Source: a virus
Lineage: Duplodnaviria; Caudoviricetes
Strand: one strand, 5' to 3'
DNA length: 24,582 nt
Virus record (IMG/VR): IMGVR_UViG_3300020399_000008
Location: 1-24,582 of that record
Program-made: the position numbers and the translations under genes
Notes under the pieces: model-generated
The model's input: only the letters and a program-made list of their open reading frames with translations
What the model was told of the DNA's origin: nothing
Databases searched by the model: none
Shown: positions 1-7,944 of the stretch, piece after piece
Layout of the letters: each line of letters starts with the position of its first letter
How positions within the stretch are numbered: position 1 is the first letter of the stretch

Positions 1-2
1 AC

Positions 3-779
3 GAAACCGTCTTAGCTGAACGCTCGTTTTCAAATGGAGACTCAGGTGTATACCTTGCTCCACTAGATACCCCTTCTTACTTTGACGATAAAGACAATAC
101 GTTAAGGATTAACTTAGGTGCTGTACCAGTAAGAGAGATTACTATTGAGAACGTATCAGCAGGAACAGTTTACTCAGGAGATGCTGCAGGAGCAAAGGTT
201 TCTGCGTTACCTGCAACCTGTGGATCAAATGGAAGTACGGCTTGTACAGAAGCAGTTTTAATTTCTGGTAATCCTACCGTAGTTGATCCCGCGTTTACTG
301 GAACAAGACTACAGGTAGGTACATTTATAATTGAGAAGTCTAGATGTAAGAGTATGGACTTCAGCGATATAGACGCTCATACAATAGTTATAGAGCATAA
401 CGCCAGTGATGGGCAAAGTATTACCCAAACATCTGGTAACGCTAGAAATAGGGCTATAGGAGGGGGACATCATCAAGCAGAAGCTATGGTAACTAGTGGA
501 GGTACATATGACCGCATATGGATTGACGCTCCTAACTCTGGGGTTAATGGAAAGATAGGTACATTAACTCTAAGCAATTTATGGACGAAGGGTGGAAGTT
601 GTACGTTTAAGAATATGGACATCGGAGTTCTGAAGATTTTACAGAATGAGGTCGGGAATGACGGCAACTTGGTTACAAAGGAGTTTCAAGTATCTGGAGT
701 TACAGGTGCTAACTGGACTGTCACGGACAACGTGGAATTAATTTTCTCTGAACCTGCACTTGATAAGGGTAACGAGTAA
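3..779 (+). CDS. 5'-partial hypothetical beta-strand-rich protein
   Basis: The frame of ORF 354..779 is open back to the window edge (ETVLAERSFSNGDSGVYLAP...EKSRCKSMDFS). Rich in G/S/T/N with alternating hydrophobic residues. Confidence 0.8.
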   Translation, partial: ETVLAERSFSNGDSGVYLAPLDTPSYFDDKDNTLRINLGAVPVREITIENVSAGTVYSGDAAGAKVSALPATCGSNGSTACTEAVLISGNPTVVDPAFTGTRLQVGTFIIEKSRCKSMDFSDIDAHTIVIEHNASDGQSITQTSGNARNRAIGGGHHQAEAMVTSGGTYDRIWIDAPNSGVNGKIGTLTLSNLWTKGGSCTFKNMDIGVLKILQNEVGNDGNLVTKEFQVSGVTGANWTVTDNVELIFSEPALDKGNE

Positions 780-788
780 TAATATAAA
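760..788 (+). promoter_or_regulatory. Candidate sigma70-type promoter for the packaging genes
   Basis: TTGATA (760-765), 17 nt spacer, TATAAA (783-788), followed by AGAGGA and ATG 804. Confidence 0.4.
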
Positions 789-803
789 GATATAAGAGGA
801 TAT

Positions 804-1466
804 ATGATCGAACAAAAAGACTTAGCTTCCCTAGAAGAACATTATGGCAAACCAATCCTTTCGGATGAGGGTGACCCTATATGTGGCAGAGGGAAAAAAG
901 GTGGAGGGGTTTGTAGGTTTGAGGCAGGTTGGGGAACAGATCACTTAGGATATGGAGCATGTAAACATCACGATAGTGAAGAGAGAATGGATGTTGCTTT
1001 AGGTGACGAATATAAAGGAAGAGTTATATATAGCAATATAGCTCAAAACCTTAGACTGAGAGAACACTTACAATCAGAAGAGAAACGTACAGAGCTAGAT
1101 AACCTCGATGGTGAAATAGTTCTTCTCAGAGCAATGCTTAAAATACTTGTAGAAAAGTACGGTGAGAAAGTTATTGATGACGAACTCTTTGACATACTGG
1201 AGGTTGGAACTGATTTCGATACGGTAGACCAACAGACCCGAAGCCTCGTTAACTTAGTAGATAAGATTAGCTCTAGCATTAAGCGTAAGTACGAAGTCTT
1301 ACAAATAGCAGGAAGCACCATCACTAGAGGAAGAGTACGAGAATACGTTGGTAATATACAACTTGCTCTTGGTCAAGTCTTACGTAACGAATGCCCTCAT
1401 TGCCACAAGAAACATAATCAGCGAGATCAAGCTATAGAAGCTATAAAGAGAGTTGGTGATCTTTAA
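804..1466 (+). CDS. terS: Probable terminase small subunit
   Basis: N-terminal CGxxxxxGxxCxxxAGWGTDHxGxGxCKxH motif (HGGxSTG-like zinc-binding domain seen in TerS proteins), helical core (LDGEIVLLRAML), C-terminal CPHC, position upstream of TerL. Confidence 0.75.
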   Translation: MIEQKDLASLEEHYGKPILSDEGDPICGRGKKGGGVCRFEAGWGTDHLGYGACKHHDSEERMDVALGDEYKGRVIYSNIAQNLRLREHLQSEEKRTELDNLDGEIVLLRAMLKILVEKYGEKVIDDELFDILEVGTDFDTVDQQTRSLVNLVDKISSSIKRKYEVLQIAGSTITRGRVREYVGNIQLALGQVLRNECPHCHKKHNQRDQAIEAIKRVGDL

Positions 1467-1945
1467 TGTACGAATATAAAGTTAAAATTACACGAGTGGT
1501 TGATGGGGATACAGTTGATGCAGAATTGGATTTGGGGTTTGATATTATCTATCGAGATAGAATCAGGCTTATGGGGATTGATACACCTGAGTCAAGAACG
1601 CGAAACAAGAGAGAGAAAAGTTTGGGACTTGAATCTAAAGCTAGACTTAAAGAACTCTGTTCTGTTCATAAAGGAAATATTTTACTCAAGACTGCTAAAG
1701 AGGGTAAGGGTAAGTTCGGAAGGATATTAGGAGATTTATATCCTATAGATTCTAAAATATCTTTAAATACAATGTTAGTAACTGAAGGACACGCTAGACC
1801 TTATTTTGGTGGAAGTAAAAATGAAACTGGAGATTGGACTAAAGAAGAAGGTGATTGTAACTGTGGAGGAAAGAAAGCATTTAGTCGATGTACTGGAACA
1901 TGGCTTCGTTGGACTCCAAATGGTTACATAGGATTTGAAGATTAA
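1466..1945 (+). CDS. Thermonuclease (staphylococcal nuclease/SNase family)
   Basis: RVVDGDT, RIRLMGIDTPE and GKFGRILG motifs. Confidence 0.93.
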   Translation: MYEYKVKITRVVDGDTVDAELDLGFDIIYRDRIRLMGIDTPESRTRNKREKSLGLESKARLKELCSVHKGNILLKTAKEGKGKFGRILGDLYPIDSKISLNTMLVTEGHARPYFGGSKNETGDWTKEEGDCNCGGKKAFSRCTGTWLRWTPNGYIGFED

Positions 1946-2733
1946 TGCCAAGGTATGTAGCTGATACAGCAAGTATCTCCATACTGTCAGGCATGAAAGA
2001 AAGATCAATAGCAGAAGAACGAGCATACGATCATCCTGCCTACTTTCATGAATATGTCTTTAATCAAACACTTGCTCCGTTCCAGTGGGAGATTATGGAA
2101 ACGCTATTGGAAGCTCACAATAATCCGAATAATAGTTCTGTTAATCCCCTTCTTATCCTTGCTCCACGCAATCATGGCAAGACATCAATAGCAGCAGAAA
2201 GTTTTCCTTTATGGAAAGTAGGAAGAAATAGATTTGAGTTAGTTCAAATTATATCTAGTGTTATCTCCCTTGGAATAGAGCGCATGGGAAAAATAGAATC
2301 CTGTATTCGCTTTAATGAAAGATATAAGCAAATGTTTGGAAACTTATATCCTGAAGATCAAAAAGATTACACATGGAAAGTTGATAGGATGGAAGTAGCT
2401 AGAGATCAGGCTCAAGCGTGGGAAAGTGGAGATATACAACGTGATGCTACATTTGCTTGTTTTGGTATAGGAACAAGCGTGGAAGGTGGACGATCAACTC
2501 TTCAGATATTTGATGATGTTGTGAGTATGGAGAATACTCAAAGTGAGACTGCTAGAAGAAATGTTTCTACAAAGTTTTGGATGTCGTTTGACCCAATGCT
2601 CATGCCCAAAGGACAACAGATATTTCTTGGTACGAGATTTCATTATGATGATCTCTATGCAGAACTTATACCTATATTAGATACAGATAGATTGTATACA
2701 GACCTTTACCCAAATATCTTGGAGGAAAGCTAA
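1945..2733 (+). CDS. terL: Terminase large subunit, N-terminal ATPase part (split gene)
   Basis: Adenine-binding LAPFQ, Walker A APRNHGKT (2161-2184), Walker B LQIFDD (2500-2517), coupling motif GTR (2629-2637). Stops about 30 aa later. Confidence 0.92.
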   Translation: MPRYVADTASISILSGMKERSIAEERAYDHPAYFHEYVFNQTLAPFQWEIMETLLEAHNNPNNSSVNPLLILAPRNHGKTSIAAESFPLWKVGRNRFELVQIISSVISLGIERMGKIESCIRFNERYKQMFGNLYPEDQKDYTWKVDRMEVARDQAQAWESGDIQRDATFACFGIGTSVEGGRSTLQIFDDVVSMENTQSETARRNVSTKFWMSFDPMLMPKGQQIFLGTRFHYDDLYAELIPILDTDRLYTDLYPNILEES

Positions 2734-2882
2734 TGAAGAAAAAGATAGCAATAGGTTCTGTATTAGGACTCACGACTTTAGCTATCGGTGGATTAATTTG
2801 GAAAATCAAGAATGTTCGTATGTGGCGAGAGATAGATGGAAGTTTACCTTTTCCTAGAGCAAAGAAACTTGGAGACAAGTAA
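2733..2882 (+). CDS. Small single-pass membrane protein, 49 aa (not in the ORF track)
   Basis: MKKKIAIGSVLGLTTLAIGGLIWKIKNVRMWREIDGSLPFPRAKKLGDK. GGAGG RBS upstream and TAATG overlaps at both ends. Confidence 0.75.
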   Translation: MKKKIAIGSVLGLTTLAIGGLIWKIKNVRMWREIDGSLPFPRAKKLGDK

Positions 2883-3214
2883 TGGACATTAAGAATATGA
2901 AAGTAATGATTGGAATCATTGTTGCAATCGTTGCTCAAGCCTTTGGAATGATTTGGTATATAGCCCAACTTGATTCCACAGTAACCAATAATACTCTTGC
3001 TATAGAAAGTCTAGAAGTATTTGATGACACTGATCTCTTGGAAATAATGGAAGACTTTGATAACCGCCTAGATGATATCGAGAAGAAGCAAGCAATTATA
3101 GAAAATGAAATGAGGTCTATCATGTCAGACCATTCCAGTTTTAATAACATCCTAAAAGACATGGGTCAAAGTGGATATGGAGATACTAGACAGTATGGTA
3201 ATTATGGTAACTGA
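2882..3214 (+). CDS. Membrane-anchored coiled-coil protein
   Basis: N-terminal hydrophobic helix (VMIGIIVAIVAQAFGMIWYIA) followed by an acidic heptad-like region. GGAG RBS and TAATG coupling. Confidence 0.8.
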   Translation: MDIKNMKVMIGIIVAIVAQAFGMIWYIAQLDSTVTNNTLAIESLEVFDDTDLLEIMEDFDNRLDDIEKKQAIIENEMRSIMSDHSSFNNILKDMGQSGYGDTRQYGNYGN

Positions 3215-3216
3215 TA

Positions 3217-4089
3217 ATGGGAGTTAGAATATATCAGGCAATTAATCCTGATGGTTCAGTTCTATGGGAAGAGGAACGCCCTAGAGAATGGCTTGAGAAG
3301 AAAAAGCGTTCTATGCCACCCTCATTATTTAATGCTCAATATCAAAATGATCCTTCGGGAATGAAGGGGGTTAAATTTGAAATTGATTGGCTTCACTTTT
3401 ATGATGATGTGTCTATACCTCCTATACATAGATTAGTAGGAGTTCAAGGTGGTGATCCTGCTACGAGTGAAAGTGAAAGTGCTAATTACTTTGGACATTG
3501 CACAGCAGGTAAAGACCCCGATACAGGAATAGTCTATGTGCTAGATTTTGCATATGGAAAGATAACTGCGCCCAAACATCTTGAGTTTCTTCATGCTCAA
3601 TATGAAACGTGGAGAAAAAGGGGTTTAACAATTAATAAAGTTATTCTTGAAACAAATGGGCCTCAACAGGCAACTACTCAACATCTTATTAATCAAACAC
3701 GAAATGATCCTAGAGGTGCTATGCCTATAGATACTGTTTATCCTAAGGGTTCTAAGGAACAGAGATATGATGCCATTATTCCTTTTATAGCTAATGGTAG
3801 TATTAAGTTCAAAGGGGAAAGGCGTGGAGATGAGATGTTTATGAGTTCGGATAATGGATTTAAGGAATTCCTTCATGAGTACAGCTCTTTTCCTAGAGGG
3901 GGAAGAGATGATATTCTTGACGCACTATGGATTGCAGTTCATCAATTAACTTCAACAGTTGATGCAGTTGCAATAAGCGATGTCGAAATTATGAGAGAGG
4001 ATGAGTACGTAGAACCAATGGATACTCCAAGAGAAAGGGTTTTAAGTGCTTCTGCCCGACCTAGTTTGTTTCATAAAGGATTAAGGTAA
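3217..4089 (+). CDS. terL: Terminase large subunit, C-terminal lid/linker plus RNase H-like nuclease part (split gene)
   Basis: YQAIxxDGxxLWEE...FNAQYQNDP linker, then GGDPA, ILETNGPQ, SKEQR and FPRGGRDDILDALW nuclease motifs. Confidence 0.92.
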   Translation: MGVRIYQAINPDGSVLWEEERPREWLEKKKRSMPPSLFNAQYQNDPSGMKGVKFEIDWLHFYDDVSIPPIHRLVGVQGGDPATSESESANYFGHCTAGKDPDTGIVYVLDFAYGKITAPKHLEFLHAQYETWRKRGLTINKVILETNGPQQATTQHLINQTRNDPRGAMPIDTVYPKGSKEQRYDAIIPFIANGSIKFKGERRGDEMFMSSDNGFKEFLHEYSSFPRGGRDDILDALWIAVHQLTSTVDAVAISDVEIMREDEYVEPMDTPRERVLSASARPSLFHKGLR

Positions 4090-4093
4090 TCGT

Positions 4094-5638
4094 ATGGGTA
4101 AATTACAAAATGCTTGGAATGCTTTAACCAAAACAGAAGAAGAAGCTGTTAGCTTTTCAGGAAGTACCGAACCTGATGAATATCTGTGGAAAAAAATGGG
4201 AACAGGGAATAAGACCAATAACCTTCCCCCATTAACTCAAGAACAAACATTAGAGTATGCTCAATACTTTTATAAAAGTAATCCTATAGCAAAAAGAATT
4301 ATTGATCTTACTGCTGAATATGTTATTGGTGATGGGATTAAATATGTAGCAGAAGATTCTGCTGTTCAAGAAATATTAGATGCTCACTGGACTGACCCTA
4401 CAAATAATTGGACTATTAATCAATTCTCAAGAGTAAGGGATTTAGGTTTAACAGGAGAACTCTGTATACCTGTATTTATTAATGAAAGTAATGGACACGT
4501 TACTCTTGGAAATATAGATACCGGAATGATTGATGTTGTTATTGAAAATCCTCATAACAATATGAAACAGCAGATGATCATATTAAAGAAAATTTCAGGA
4601 GAACCTTATCGCAGGGCTTATAAGATTATAGATATATCTAATGCTCCTATAGGAACAAAAGAGTTTGGAAGATTAGTGGGATTGAATTGTGGAGAGATAA
4701 AGGGTGGAGATTTTGAACTTGGAGATATCATTGAACCTAAACGTGGACGTAAAAAATATAAATGTAAAATAGCAGGTGCTTGCTTTTTCTTTACAATTAA
4801 TAACCCAATGACTGCAGATAGGGGATGGAGTGATCTTCTTCCAGATATGGATTGGATAGATGCTCATGATCAATTTTTATTCTCTTCTGTAGAGAAAGCA
4901 ATAGAATCTTCTAAGTATGTGCTTGATGTGACTTTAACTGGTAAAAATGAACAACAGATTCGAGAGTGGTTAAGAAATCAATCGGCTCTAAAACCCGGTC
5001 AAAGATTTGCTCATAATGAAAACGTCACACAGGAATTTAAGACTCCTGATCTGCGTTTAGAAGATAGTGCTAGTTTAGCCTCAGTCTTAAAGAACCATGT
5101 TCTGGCAGGGGCAGGTTTACCACCTATATGGTTTTCTGAGTCTTTAACTTCTCGTGCATCTGCACCTGAAATGACTGAACCTGCTTATCGTCATTTGAAG
5201 ATGAGACAAAAGTATATGTCTTACATAATGAGTAGGATATTTAGGTTTGTCCTAGATACAGCGATAGTCTATGGTAGATTAAGACAAGATGGTCGTTATA
5301 ATGACAGGAGTCTTGCCAGTATTGAATCTGCAAGTTTTTATCTGAGGATGCCTGAAGTTTCCTTTAAAGACCAAAGAGCTAATGCAATTACTTTAAGATC
5401 AGTATCCACTGCACTTAAAGATGCAACATCTAATGGCTTTATAGAAATTGATGAAGCGAATAGAATTTTCAAAAGATACTTAGGACTTACTGGAATTGAT
5501 ACAGGAAGAGATGAACCTGCACAAAAACGTGGGGTTTATGATGTAGACTTAACATTAAAGGAATTGTTTCAGATAACTACTGAATCAACTGATATTAATG
5601 GATATACTTATTATGCTTTCCTTGATAGAACCAAATAA
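4094..5638 (+). CDS. Portal protein
   Basis: 514 aa directly after TerL. YKSNPIAKRIID...GDG, GELCI, RGWSDL and LAGAGLPPIWF motifs are typical of portals. Confidence 0.9.
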   Translation: MGKLQNAWNALTKTEEEAVSFSGSTEPDEYLWKKMGTGNKTNNLPPLTQEQTLEYAQYFYKSNPIAKRIIDLTAEYVIGDGIKYVAEDSAVQEILDAHWTDPTNNWTINQFSRVRDLGLTGELCIPVFINESNGHVTLGNIDTGMIDVVIENPHNNMKQQMIILKKISGEPYRRAYKIIDISNAPIGTKEFGRLVGLNCGEIKGGDFELGDIIEPKRGRKKYKCKIAGACFFFTINNPMTADRGWSDLLPDMDWIDAHDQFLFSSVEKAIESSKYVLDVTLTGKNEQQIREWLRNQSALKPGQRFAHNENVTQEFKTPDLRLEDSASLASVLKNHVLAGAGLPPIWFSESLTSRASAPEMTEPAYRHLKMRQKYMSYIMSRIFRFVLDTAIVYGRLRQDGRYNDRSLASIESASFYLRMPEVSFKDQRANAITLRSVSTALKDATSNGFIEIDEANRIFKRYLGLTGIDTGRDEPAQKRGVYDVDLTLKELFQITTESTDINGYTYYAFLDRTK

Positions 5639-5658
5639 AAGTTTTATTATATAGTTTA

Positions 5659-5688
5659 TTGACAAAACTCTAATTTAAGAAATAAAAT
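5659..5688 (+). promoter_or_regulatory. Sigma70-type promoter upstream of the capsid gene
   Basis: Perfect TTGACA (5659-5664), 18 nt spacer, TAAAAT (5683-5688) in an AT-rich intergenic gap. AGGGG RBS before ATG 5713. Confidence 0.65.
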
Positions 5689-5712
5689 CGCTATAGTGCT
5701 TTAGGGGTTAAT

Positions 5713-7944
5713 ATGCCAGAAAAACTAGAAGATTGCGTTAAAGAGATTTTAGCTGATCCTGACTTTGTACCCGAAGAGGGACATGATCGAGAGGATGCAG
5801 CTTATGCTATCTGTACTGCAAGAATGAAATTAGATCAAGTGGAACAAGAGGGAATGCCTCATTCCGATTATGTTGAAAGCACACAGACCATTAAACGTGT
5901 TCTTCAATTTGAAGCCAAAGCACTAGATGATACAGGAAGCGATTGGCGTATTCGTATTATCAATGCAGGAACTTCAAGAAATAATAGAGAGTATCCCCTA
6001 GATGTGCTTCATAGAGATGCGTTAATTTTTGAAGGAGTTCCAGTTCATGCAGGAAATGGTAGAGATCATTCTCCCGAAGAACGTGGCGTTAAAAGTATTG
6101 TTGGGTTTATTAAAAATGTAGATCGAGTTCCCGAAGGACTTGATGGTACATTTCATGTTTCAGACCCAACTCTAAGAGATACTCTTCTTGACTTACATAA
6201 AGAAGGAGTATTGAGTTCTGTTGTTGGATTTAGCATTGTTGCTGAAGGACGATGGCAAAGTGATCAGGTAATGAGATCAGAGCGAGCGATACAGCTAGTA
6301 CGAGCCGACTCTGTAGATTTGGTTAGAGAACCTGCCGCAGGGGGTAAATTCCTTGCAGTTGCAGAGTCAGAAGAAGTTATCCATAAAGAAAAAGTTATTA
6401 ATACAGTTCCTTTTAAGGAGGGAAAAACAATGGAAATAACTGAGGAAAAGTTAAAAGAACTTCTTGCGGAAGCCTCCGAAAAAGGTGTAGAAACCTACAA
6501 AGAGAGTACCGATGAGGGGGAAGTAGTGGAAGAAAAAGGAGAAGACATTAGTAAGGTCGAAGAAGCTCTTACTCAATTAAATTCCACTCTTCTGAATACA
6601 GCAATTTCAGGAGCAGGATTACCTGACATTGCAGAGAAAAGAATTCGGGTTCAATTTGAAGGTGGTGCATTTGACGCATCTGCTGTTCAAAAAGCAATCG
6701 CAGAGGAGAAAGATTATCTCGCTACTCTGACTAAGGTTGCTGTAGAAAATGTTACTACTAGCAAGACTGAAATCATTGCTGATGAAGGTGATAAGAAACT
6801 TGCTCGACTGGATGCCTCTTTCACACCATCTAGAGTTATAGTGACTAAAGATGGAGAGAGGGTTAAAGGATATAGAACCTTTACAGAAGCATATTGCGAC
6901 TGGACAGGAAAGAATCCTTTTGAAGTTGGACGAGATGAGGTTTGGGAAGCATGGATGAATGGCTCAAGAGGTTATGCGTCTTGGCGTGAAGAAGCTGTTA
7001 ATAGGCTTTACACAGAAGCAATAGGTACATCTGAATGGGCAGAAGTTGCCGCAGACAGAATGCACAAAGCTCTGTTACAGAACTATGTTGATCTACCTCA
7101 GTATCAAGATTGGAGAAAAGTAGCAAAGGTTATCAGCGTTAATGATTACCAAGCATACAGAGACATCAAAATTGGTGGCTTTGCAGATTTGGCAGTTGTT
7201 GCAGAAGCAGGTACATATGCTAACCTAACCAATCCTACAGATGAGGAAACTTCAGTCACCATGCAGAAGCGTGGTGGTATCGCTTATCAGATAACACGCG
7301 AATTGGTGTTGAATGATAATATCGGTGCTGTAGCTGAGATACCTCGTGAACTGGCTCGATCTGCTGCTAGAACTCTTTATAAGCAGGTCTTTAATATAAT
7401 GGGTGACAATGATCACACTTATCAGCCTGACTCTGTAGCTACGTTCAATGCTGCTCATAATAATATTGGCACTACTGCTCTTTCTATTGCAGGTCTGAAT
7501 GAGACATCAATAGGCATGAGAAGTCAGACTAGATATGGTGCTACCGCTGATGTGCTTGGAGCTGCAAATGCGCCTAGAACATTGGTTGTGCCTAATGAGT
7601 TGACTAGCTTGGCAATGAGGATTTCAAATCCATCTGCTCACGTTCAGGTCGAGTTAACTGCTGATGCTGATACAGATATAGATGCTGCACGATTCGCAGG
7701 ATTAGATGTCATAACAGTTGACTACTTTACTAATGCTACTCAGTATTTCACCGTTGCTGATCCTGATGAAGCTGCAGGAATTGTGGTTGCATTCTTGAAT
7801 GGTAATGAAGAGCCTGATCTGTTTATACAGAATGACGAGACTCAAGGTGATACATTCACCAATGATGTACAAAGCATTAAAGTAAGGCACGAGTTCAACA
7901 CAACTGTTGCTGACTTCCGACCGCTTTACAGGCAAATTGGGTAA
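5713..7944 (+). CDS. Fused prohead protease-scaffold-major capsid protein (Mu gpT-like HK97-fold capsid domain)
   Basis: Protease motifs GTSRNNREY, DH, GFSI and SVDLVREPAAGGKF; E/K-rich scaffold; capsid motif ITRELVLNDNIGAVAEIPRELARSAART...LVVP...AFLNGNEEP...KVRHEF. Confidence 0.9.
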   Translation: MPEKLEDCVKEILADPDFVPEEGHDREDAAYAICTARMKLDQVEQEGMPHSDYVESTQTIKRVLQFEAKALDDTGSDWRIRIINAGTSRNNREYPLDVLHRDALIFEGVPVHAGNGRDHSPEERGVKSIVGFIKNVDRVPEGLDGTFHVSDPTLRDTLLDLHKEGVLSSVVGFSIVAEGRWQSDQVMRSERAIQLVRADSVDLVREPAAGGKFLAVAESEEVIHKEKVINTVPFKEGKTMEITEEKLKELLAEASEKGVETYKESTDEGEVVEEKGEDISKVEEALTQLNSTLLNTAISGAGLPDIAEKRIRVQFEGGAFDASAVQKAIAEEKDYLATLTKVAVENVTTSKTEIIADEGDKKLARLDASFTPSRVIVTKDGERVKGYRTFTEAYCDWTGKNPFEVGRDEVWEAWMNGSRGYASWREEAVNRLYTEAIGTSEWAEVAADRMHKALLQNYVDLPQYQDWRKVAKVISVNDYQAYRDIKIGGFADLAVVAEAGTYANLTNPTDEETSVTMQKRGGIAYQITRELVLNDNIGAVAEIPRELARSAARTLYKQVFNIMGDNDHTYQPDSVATFNAAHNNIGTTALSIAGLNETSIGMRSQTRYGATADVLGAANAPRTLVVPNELTSLAMRISNPSAHVQVELTADADTDIDAARFAGLDVITVDYFTNATQYFTVADPDEAAGIVVAFLNGNEEPDLFIQNDETQGDTFTNDVQSIKVRHEFNTTVADFRPLYRQIG
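6415..6432 (+). promoter_or_regulatory. Internal RBS and in-frame ATG for a protease-less scaffold-capsid isoform
   Basis: AAGGAGG (6415-6421), 8 nt spacer, ATG 6430, in frame with 5713 (offset 717 nt), right after the protease domain. Confidence 0.7.

Follow-up and report, generated by a model that had tools for sequence, protein, structure and literature searches.

The herpesvirus UL15 gene is a terminase coding sequence that is interrupted by other genes and rejoined by splicing into one chain, and Aeh1 nrdA, which specifies an essential enzyme of the phage, is divided into two genes that have another gene between them. For the phage large terminase (TerL), the ATPase domain and the nuclease domain of most cluster AY Arthrobacter phages are described as lying in two genes (PMC11920828, PMC12820723). 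The products of an intron-split terL (PMC12880540) and of an intein-split terminase (PMC2677866), as reported, end as one chain, and Campylobacter homologues have been presented as divided by an internal stop into two pieces, which cover positions 1-248 and 248-427 (PMC7291426). Our literature search, whose coverage of subscription journals and supplements was limited, turned up no report of a terminase whose ATPase domain is cut internally. Here we analyse a marine phage locus in which the cut appears to fall at that place.

Results

The terL locus and its surroundings

The window, by which we mean the whole stretch of DNA analysed, is a 24,582-base virus record with its head module on the + strand, and the runs containing its DNA are mostly labelled marine metagenome. 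Its TerL is encoded by two genes. TerL-N (1945..2733, +), a 262-aa ATPase core, matches positions 256-463 of phrog_38, and TerL-C (3217..4089, +), a 290-aa protein comprising the last ATPase strand, lid motifs, a linker and an RNase H-type nuclease, matches positions 475-713, the two matches being contiguous parts of this 760-position profile. Upstream, a gene at 804..1466 (+) that gave no Pfam and no PHROG match is probably the small terminase gene (TerS), an assignment made from position only; it is kept upstream of TerL-N in relatives, and a gene resembling it stands directly before TerL-N in the third split lineage described below. An SNase-like nuclease gene (1466..1945, +; PF00565, E 6.6e-12; phrog_452, E 8e-39) also precedes TerL-N, outside the gap. 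Downstream follow the portal protein gene (4094..5638, +; phrog_10963, E 2e-33) and, at 5713-7944, a single 743-aa ORF in which Pfam and PHROG matches place a prohead protease fused with the major capsid protein. With these neighbours, TerL holds the head-module position next to portal and protease/capsid that is expected of it. No close relative was found among 50,697 cultured phage records, the best reaching about 31-35%.

The halves are 483 nt apart, and this interval, given as about 480 nt in the initial annotation, contains two ORFs as that annotation had claimed, the four reading frames lying where it had placed them (1945-2733, 2733-2882, 2882-3214 and 3217-4089). The first inserted ORF (2733..2882, +) codes for a 49-aa predicted single-pass membrane peptide without a family match, which is the cargo of the closest sub-clade, and the second (2882..3214, +) for a 110-aa protein with weak matches to phrog_19911 and phrog_8909, both of unknown function. 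In each, a single hydrophobic stretch lies at the N-terminal end (Kyte-Doolittle 19-mer maxima of 1.91 and 2.15), which agrees with their original description as membrane-protein genes, although their membrane nature is a prediction. The GC content of the gap is that of its flanks (0.35-0.37), the repeats at the break belong to short two-copy families only, with no flanking duplication found, and promoter-like sites are at chance level (15 vs 18.5). The chained junctions that had drawn attention do exist along the four ORFs (TAATG, TAATG and TGATAATG) but are nothing special, since 1-nt stop/start overlaps are ordinary in the window (9 of its 35 gene junctions).

Position of the break

TerL-N carries a Walker A motif (R75, K79, T80), a Walker B motif (D190, D191) and a coupling motif (G229, T230), and the set R75, K79, T80, D190, G229 and T230, which marks it as an ASCE ATPase, is conserved in 33/33 N chains. 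The post-coupling helix is followed by a clade-specific tail in which D246 and Y251 are invariant (33/33) and which ends in variable acidic residues. TerL-C begins with the strand VRIYQA, continues with the lid residues W17 and Q41-Y42-N44, and contains the nuclease residues D80, E145 and D231/D232/D235. Among 34 C chains, V3, A8, W17, Q41, N44, D80, D231, D232 and D235 are invariant and E145 is kept in 33, and the chain begins 2-3 residues before V3 in 32; two C chains, P0071 and P0072, are extended at the N terminus, the conserved Val being preceded by 64 and 14 residues. The initial assignment of all ATPase motifs to the first ORF was thus correct for the Walker A, Walker B and coupling motifs but not for the last strand and the lid motifs, which sit in the second ORF, as its author had also inferred, while the nuclease motifs do lie in 3217..4089. 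The nuclease is of the RNase H type, as indicated by the phrog_38 match at 475-713 and by the model of a fused relative, P0096 (see below), for which Foldseek returned TerL nuclease structures, with no residue-level placement of the strand.

The AlphaFold model of TerL-N (pLDDT 84.7) matched terminase ATPases, the best of them being the PhiV-1 terminase (8dgc_E, Z 21.9, rmsd 3.5, 220 aligned). Its end aligns to residue 190 of D6E, residue 204 of P74-26 and residue 306 of T4 (2o0h). In D6E, a bond to the P-loop arginine is described for the lid residue Y213, and residues 230-241 are given as the linker that leads to the nuclease (PMC5727402). An end at D6E residue 190 would thus leave it to chain 2 to supply the last strand and the lid's C-terminal part. 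A profile alignment to T7 gp19, in our own reading, likewise places the break between the post-coupling helix and the next strand. Together with the invariant chain 2 residues, these structural ranges bear out the earlier proposal that the break falls within the ATPase domain, ahead of its last strand and of the lid, as far as the models indicate. Three structural alignments carry the N-chain tail further (8dgc_E to 297, 3cpe to 366 and 2o0j to 360), so that the tail may in part take the place of the lid, although these alignments give residue ranges only. In fused outgroup proteins (n=68), the break region is 35 to 79 residues long.

Conservation of the split

The initial annotation had proposed to look for the same split in related phages, and all 10 of the closest loci (80-96% identity) are split at the identical point. 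Of 269 redundant locus rows examined, 78 belong to the clade; 75 of these are split, none is fused and 3 end before the second half. The rows are redundant and represent 26 distinct junctions. In all 75 rows with both halves, ATPase, lid and nuclease are therefore distributed over two ORFs and not joined on one polypeptide, and relatives as distant as about 48% identity still show the split. The distant loci found with the C half have terL as a single open frame in 31 of 31 cases. A protein search with the N half returned 33 homologues of similar size (227-277 aa, 42-94% identity) and 5 distant 426-aa proteins, and the C half gave 37 homologues at 44% identity and above (174-441 aa) and one distant protein; among longer proteins 16 were found, none above 31% identity. 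The TerL pair is the only phrog_38 match in all five records searched, of which three are complete and one (L159) belongs to a second split lineage, and no second terL occurs in the three complete genomes of relatives. One complete relative, G001, encodes a RuvB (L349 8871-9809) above the NCBIfam cut-off (311 vs 282 bits), as well as DinG-like and Hef/Xpf-like genes.

Relaxed selection on either half, which would have spoken for a dying gene, was not observed: dN/dS is 0.018-0.086 for TerL-N (8 pairs) and 0.053-0.131 for TerL-C (7 pairs), in the range of the portal gene (0.037 and 0.063, 2 pairs), and catalytic residues are invariant or nearly so, in agreement with the early view that both halves are intact. 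For the 49-aa gene, dN/dS is 0.06-0.18 (6 pairs). By these sequence comparisons, both TerL halves are under purifying selection and the split is inherited in this clade.

The gap between the halves

Across the 26 distinct junctions, the gap varies from -1 to 1451 nt, the frame offset is 0, 1 and 2 in 13, 6 and 7 cases, and the TerL-N stop codon is TAA, TGA and TAG in 8, 15 and 3 cases, respectively. The halves are consecutive in two of the 26 variants, L007 and L194, which carry no cargo and in which the TerL-N stop overlaps the TerL-C start (TAATG, gap of -1). In close relatives the gap contains a hydrophobic peptide of 39-49 aa, alone or with a PAPS-reductase-like gene (phrog_424); homologues of the 49-aa gene lie between the halves in these relatives and are absent from L007 and L194. 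Deeper clade members have a Cys-motif HTH gene in the gap (11 loci among those listed), for example at 3944-4255 in L061 and 2954-3325 in L063. Among clusters of look-alikes of this gene, the commonest known phylum is Chloroflexota, which we take as a host lead only; a scan of genome contigs returned one distant locus, and the 430-aa upstream gene gave weak viral clusters only.

Most relatives that have the 110-aa gene carry it upstream of terL. Among the loci listed, it stands upstream in L004, L056, L057, L059, L194 and L279, the last a member of the third lineage (1329-1727), and between the halves in the window and in L052, which is on the same contig as L001. This distribution points to a resident gene that lies inside the gap in this sub-lineage. 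Between the window (2733-3214) and L001 (4789-5270), the DNA of the 49-aa gene is identical and dS is 0.10 for the 110-aa gene, far below the 0.32-0.34 of the flanking terL halves, suggesting that the cargo block was probably exchanged recently. The PAPS-reductase-like cargo is 265 aa long in L199 (1035-1832) and cut to 50 aa in L197 (2721-2873), where it may be either decaying cargo or the result of an assembly deletion. No homing endonuclease gene was found in the two gap genes of the window, searched against Pfam and PHROG, or in 9 further ORFs that were taken from the gaps of 8 clade loci and scanned against Pfam; cargo elsewhere was sorted into groups by profile rather than scanned ORF by ORF. 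The nested genes are passengers and no part of the mechanism, a variable cargo with which two of the 26 junction variants dispense altogether.

Contigs and transcripts

Every junction of the window is bridged by contigs from other runs, namely X2 (1900-2824 and 3002-3347), X5 (2341-2947) and X6 (3191-3384), where X2 and X6 are runs of two other studies and X5 is a further sample of the possible source study. The sole joint listed falls within the 110-aa gene and no joint removes the insert, which answers the misassembly concern raised at the outset; the whole stretch is spanned by none of the single contigs listed. One RNA run gave coverage at 2913-3215 only, that is, over the 110-aa gene. Homologues of this gene (window 2880-3210) far exceed the terminase in coverage depth in runs X5 and X6, with values of up to about 300 vs 5, suggesting that other, more abundant sequences carry the family.

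A fused relative and further split lineages

An exhaustive profile search uncovered one fused clade member, P0096, a 641-aa protein known as a single sequence on a 4.2-kb contig. In one chain it contains the N-chain tail, an acidic stretch and the VRIYxA strand, in this order. Its model (confidence 86.1) is well resolved on both flanks of the break, and the stretch across it (250-274) has a pLDDT below 50. P0096 groups with the clade with a support of 100, the branching order relative to the split P0095 having a support of only 43-70. The split is thus not obligatory in the clade, and the fusion may be ancestral or a re-fusion.

The break recurs at this structural point in two further lineages. 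The second (L150, L156, L159, L167, L169 and L176) has from none to about seven genes between the halves, and the third (L279, L281, L283, L284, L306, L307 and L318) has two or three gap genes in the three loci inspected. Some genes in the gaps of the second lineage (L150 3751-5890, L167 1213-3767, L176 3726-5758) resemble virion proteins, and in its chain 2 the first strand is closely followed by a Cys-rich insert. Each of the three split lineages has fused sisters. Placing all three in one clade was rejected by the AU test (p-AU 1.9e-57), as was joining the first and third (3e-7, or 0.006 with P0096 added); the tree behind these tests was a quick LG+G4 one with long branches, built from 33 rows that we selected out of 157. 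Upon rescanning of 349 rows, the outgroup comprised 241 fused and 15 split rows, 13 of the latter in the second and third lineages and 2 with lone breaks at other positions. These lone breaks (L084 3472-3474 and L270 737-788; in-frame stop, frame change) are probably errors or lesions and were set aside from the fission lineages. Seven half-length outgroup TerL proteins (P0103, P0107, P0108, P0113, P0115, P0127 and P0149) end just after the post-coupling helix and could possibly be further fissions; having no genomic context, they were excluded from the split counts. Independent cuts in this loop have arisen in at least two further lineages, so that it likely tolerates fission for structural reasons.

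Discussion

TerL is encoded in this clade by two genes split in the loop between the post-coupling helix and the last ATPase strand, and we consider it quite likely that their products re-associate non-covalently into one working motor subunit. Chain 2 would start anew at its own ATG, probably via translational coupling to the gene ending just upstream; the TerL-C start of the window has almost no Shine-Dalgarno pairing (dG -1.1), so that initiation would depend on this presumed coupling. The N-terminal VRIYxA strand of chain 2 would then dock on the edge of the chain 1 sheet, as in fragment complementation, and with it would come the nuclease and the C-terminal portion of the lid. The interface would probably be held with the help of chain 1's invariant tail, and the two-chain subunits would form a normal ring on the portal. 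After each half had gained its own stop and start, the gap may have become a slot in which small genes were gained, lost and swapped.

Several explanations would keep or restore a single chain. A group I intron that splits terL is reported to be removed by splicing in Jug phages (PMC12880540), and the halves of the window share a reading frame, yet splicing by a group I or II intron or in the manner of UL15 is very unlikely here: a search of positions 1-6000 against Rfam gave nothing with an E value of up to 5, two relatives have a gap of -1, only 13 of the 26 junctions are in frame, and the cargo abuts both halves, a conserved tail ending TerL-N and a conserved ATG starting TerL-C. A split intein has been described in a terminase (PMC2677866), but protein trans-splicing has a next to negligible chance at this locus, where none of the four ORFs matches an intein family in Pfam, the 33 N-chain tails end in the variable acidic residues and chain 2 opens with terminase sequence in 32/34. 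Recoding into a full-length TerL, for which the TAATG overlap of L007 and L194 could be crossed by a frameshift, would have to deal elsewhere with three stop codons, three frames and gaps of up to 1451 nt filled with selected genes, and we give readthrough, frameshifting or a ribosomal hop hardly any credence. The variability of gap, frame, stop codon and cargo, the lack of an Rfam match within 1-6000 and the absence of intein sequence from the four ORFs together argue against splicing, trans-splicing, frameshift and readthrough. The initial annotation was therefore right to see neither intron nor intein, and its comparison with UL15 proved superficial, as nothing points to splicing. A misassembled or a dead, decaying gene is similarly hard to credit; it would accord with the lack of a single listed contig across the stretch and with the lesion-like outgroup breaks of L084 and L270, but all junctions are bridged in other runs and the split recurs to about 48% identity with dN/dS at most 0.13.

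Another reading accepts two chains without a stable heterodimer: chain 1 would be an ATPase that needs no partner, its conserved tail taking the place of the strand and lid that it has lost, and chain 2 would be a nuclease recruited only at the portal or for the cutting step. The invariance of D246 and Y251 in 33/33 tails, the confident model of chain 1 by itself (pLDDT 84.7) and the overlay of its end on later target residues in three structural alignments speak for it. However, the strand and lid residues V3, A8, W17, Q41 and N44 of chain 2 are invariant in 34/34 and could decay if unused, and the fused P0096 has both tail and strand, which indicates that the tail does not simply replace the strand. 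We regard this reading as unlikely. A heritable fission inside the ATPase domain, without intron or intein, agrees with all tests that we ran, and in this the initial interpretation is supported. A further proposal, which we find rather doubtful, makes a recurrent fission hotspot of the loop that precedes the last ATPase strand, with ATPase core and lid-plus-nuclease becoming separate chains of the motor and the split itself being selected, since it could vary the nuclease/ATPase ratio or the timing between cutting and pumping, or hide the terminase from host Avs1-3 sensors. Terminase sensing by Avs1-3 has been described (PMC11564622); its link to the TerL split is speculation.

In the packaging-motor models presented in PMC5727402, force passes from the P-loop via the lid to the nuclease. 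If the motor works as we propose, a covalent link between ATPase core and lid would be unnecessary. The two chains offer ready-made parts, with P0096 as a fused control, for testing coupling and stoichiometry, and for engineering, a loop that has undergone fission repeatedly is marked as a tolerant site. As terL serves as a marker gene, half-length matches in marine viromes can be real genes rather than fragments.

Among known systems, UL15 shares with this locus the interruption by other genes, whereas splicing is nowhere indicated in the window. The fractured genes in which split inteins go together with free-standing endonucleases, as outlined in PMC2677866, where Aeh1 nrdA is named, are alike in that an essential phage enzyme is encoded in two genes with another gene between them, and differ in that the present locus has no intein and no endonuclease among the scanned cargo and that its gap can be empty. 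The T7 gp19 and PhiV-1 terminases (PDB 4bij, 8dgc; NCBIfam NF033889; phrog_38) share folds and motifs with the window pair and are its best solved relatives by profile and by structure. They consist of one polypeptide, unlike TerL of the window, whose halves score 65 and 20 bits against NF033889, below the cut-off of 150. The premise that TerL is normally one polypeptide thus stands in that the split departs from this single-chain type, but a two-gene TerL has a precedent in the cluster AY phages. Two half-sized families labelled terminase large subunit, phrog_4758 (243 positions) and phrog_5573 (250 positions), cover the same ranges when matched to the N and C chains of each of the three lineages, suggesting that a further lineage with a similar break is present in databases; their low scores (40-96 bits) imply that they were not built from these three lineages. 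Closest in organization are the cluster AY phages (BillyTP, PP978841, genes 2 and 3; BlueShadow), which are viable in culture and have a two-gene TerL before the portal, with no intron or intein in the annotation available for them. BillyTP is cut near the ATPase/nuclease boundary, with 111 residues after the coupling motif vs 34 here and the first nuclease Asp at residue 15 of gene 3 vs Asp80 here, the BillyTP motifs having been assigned in this analysis. Its TerL belongs to phrog_9 rather than phrog_38, and its two genes are consecutive and without cargo, in contrast to the 483-nt gap of the window. A two-gene TerL is therefore already known; what distinguishes the present one is that it is cut within the ATPase domain, that this cut has recurred independently and that nature provides a fused control.
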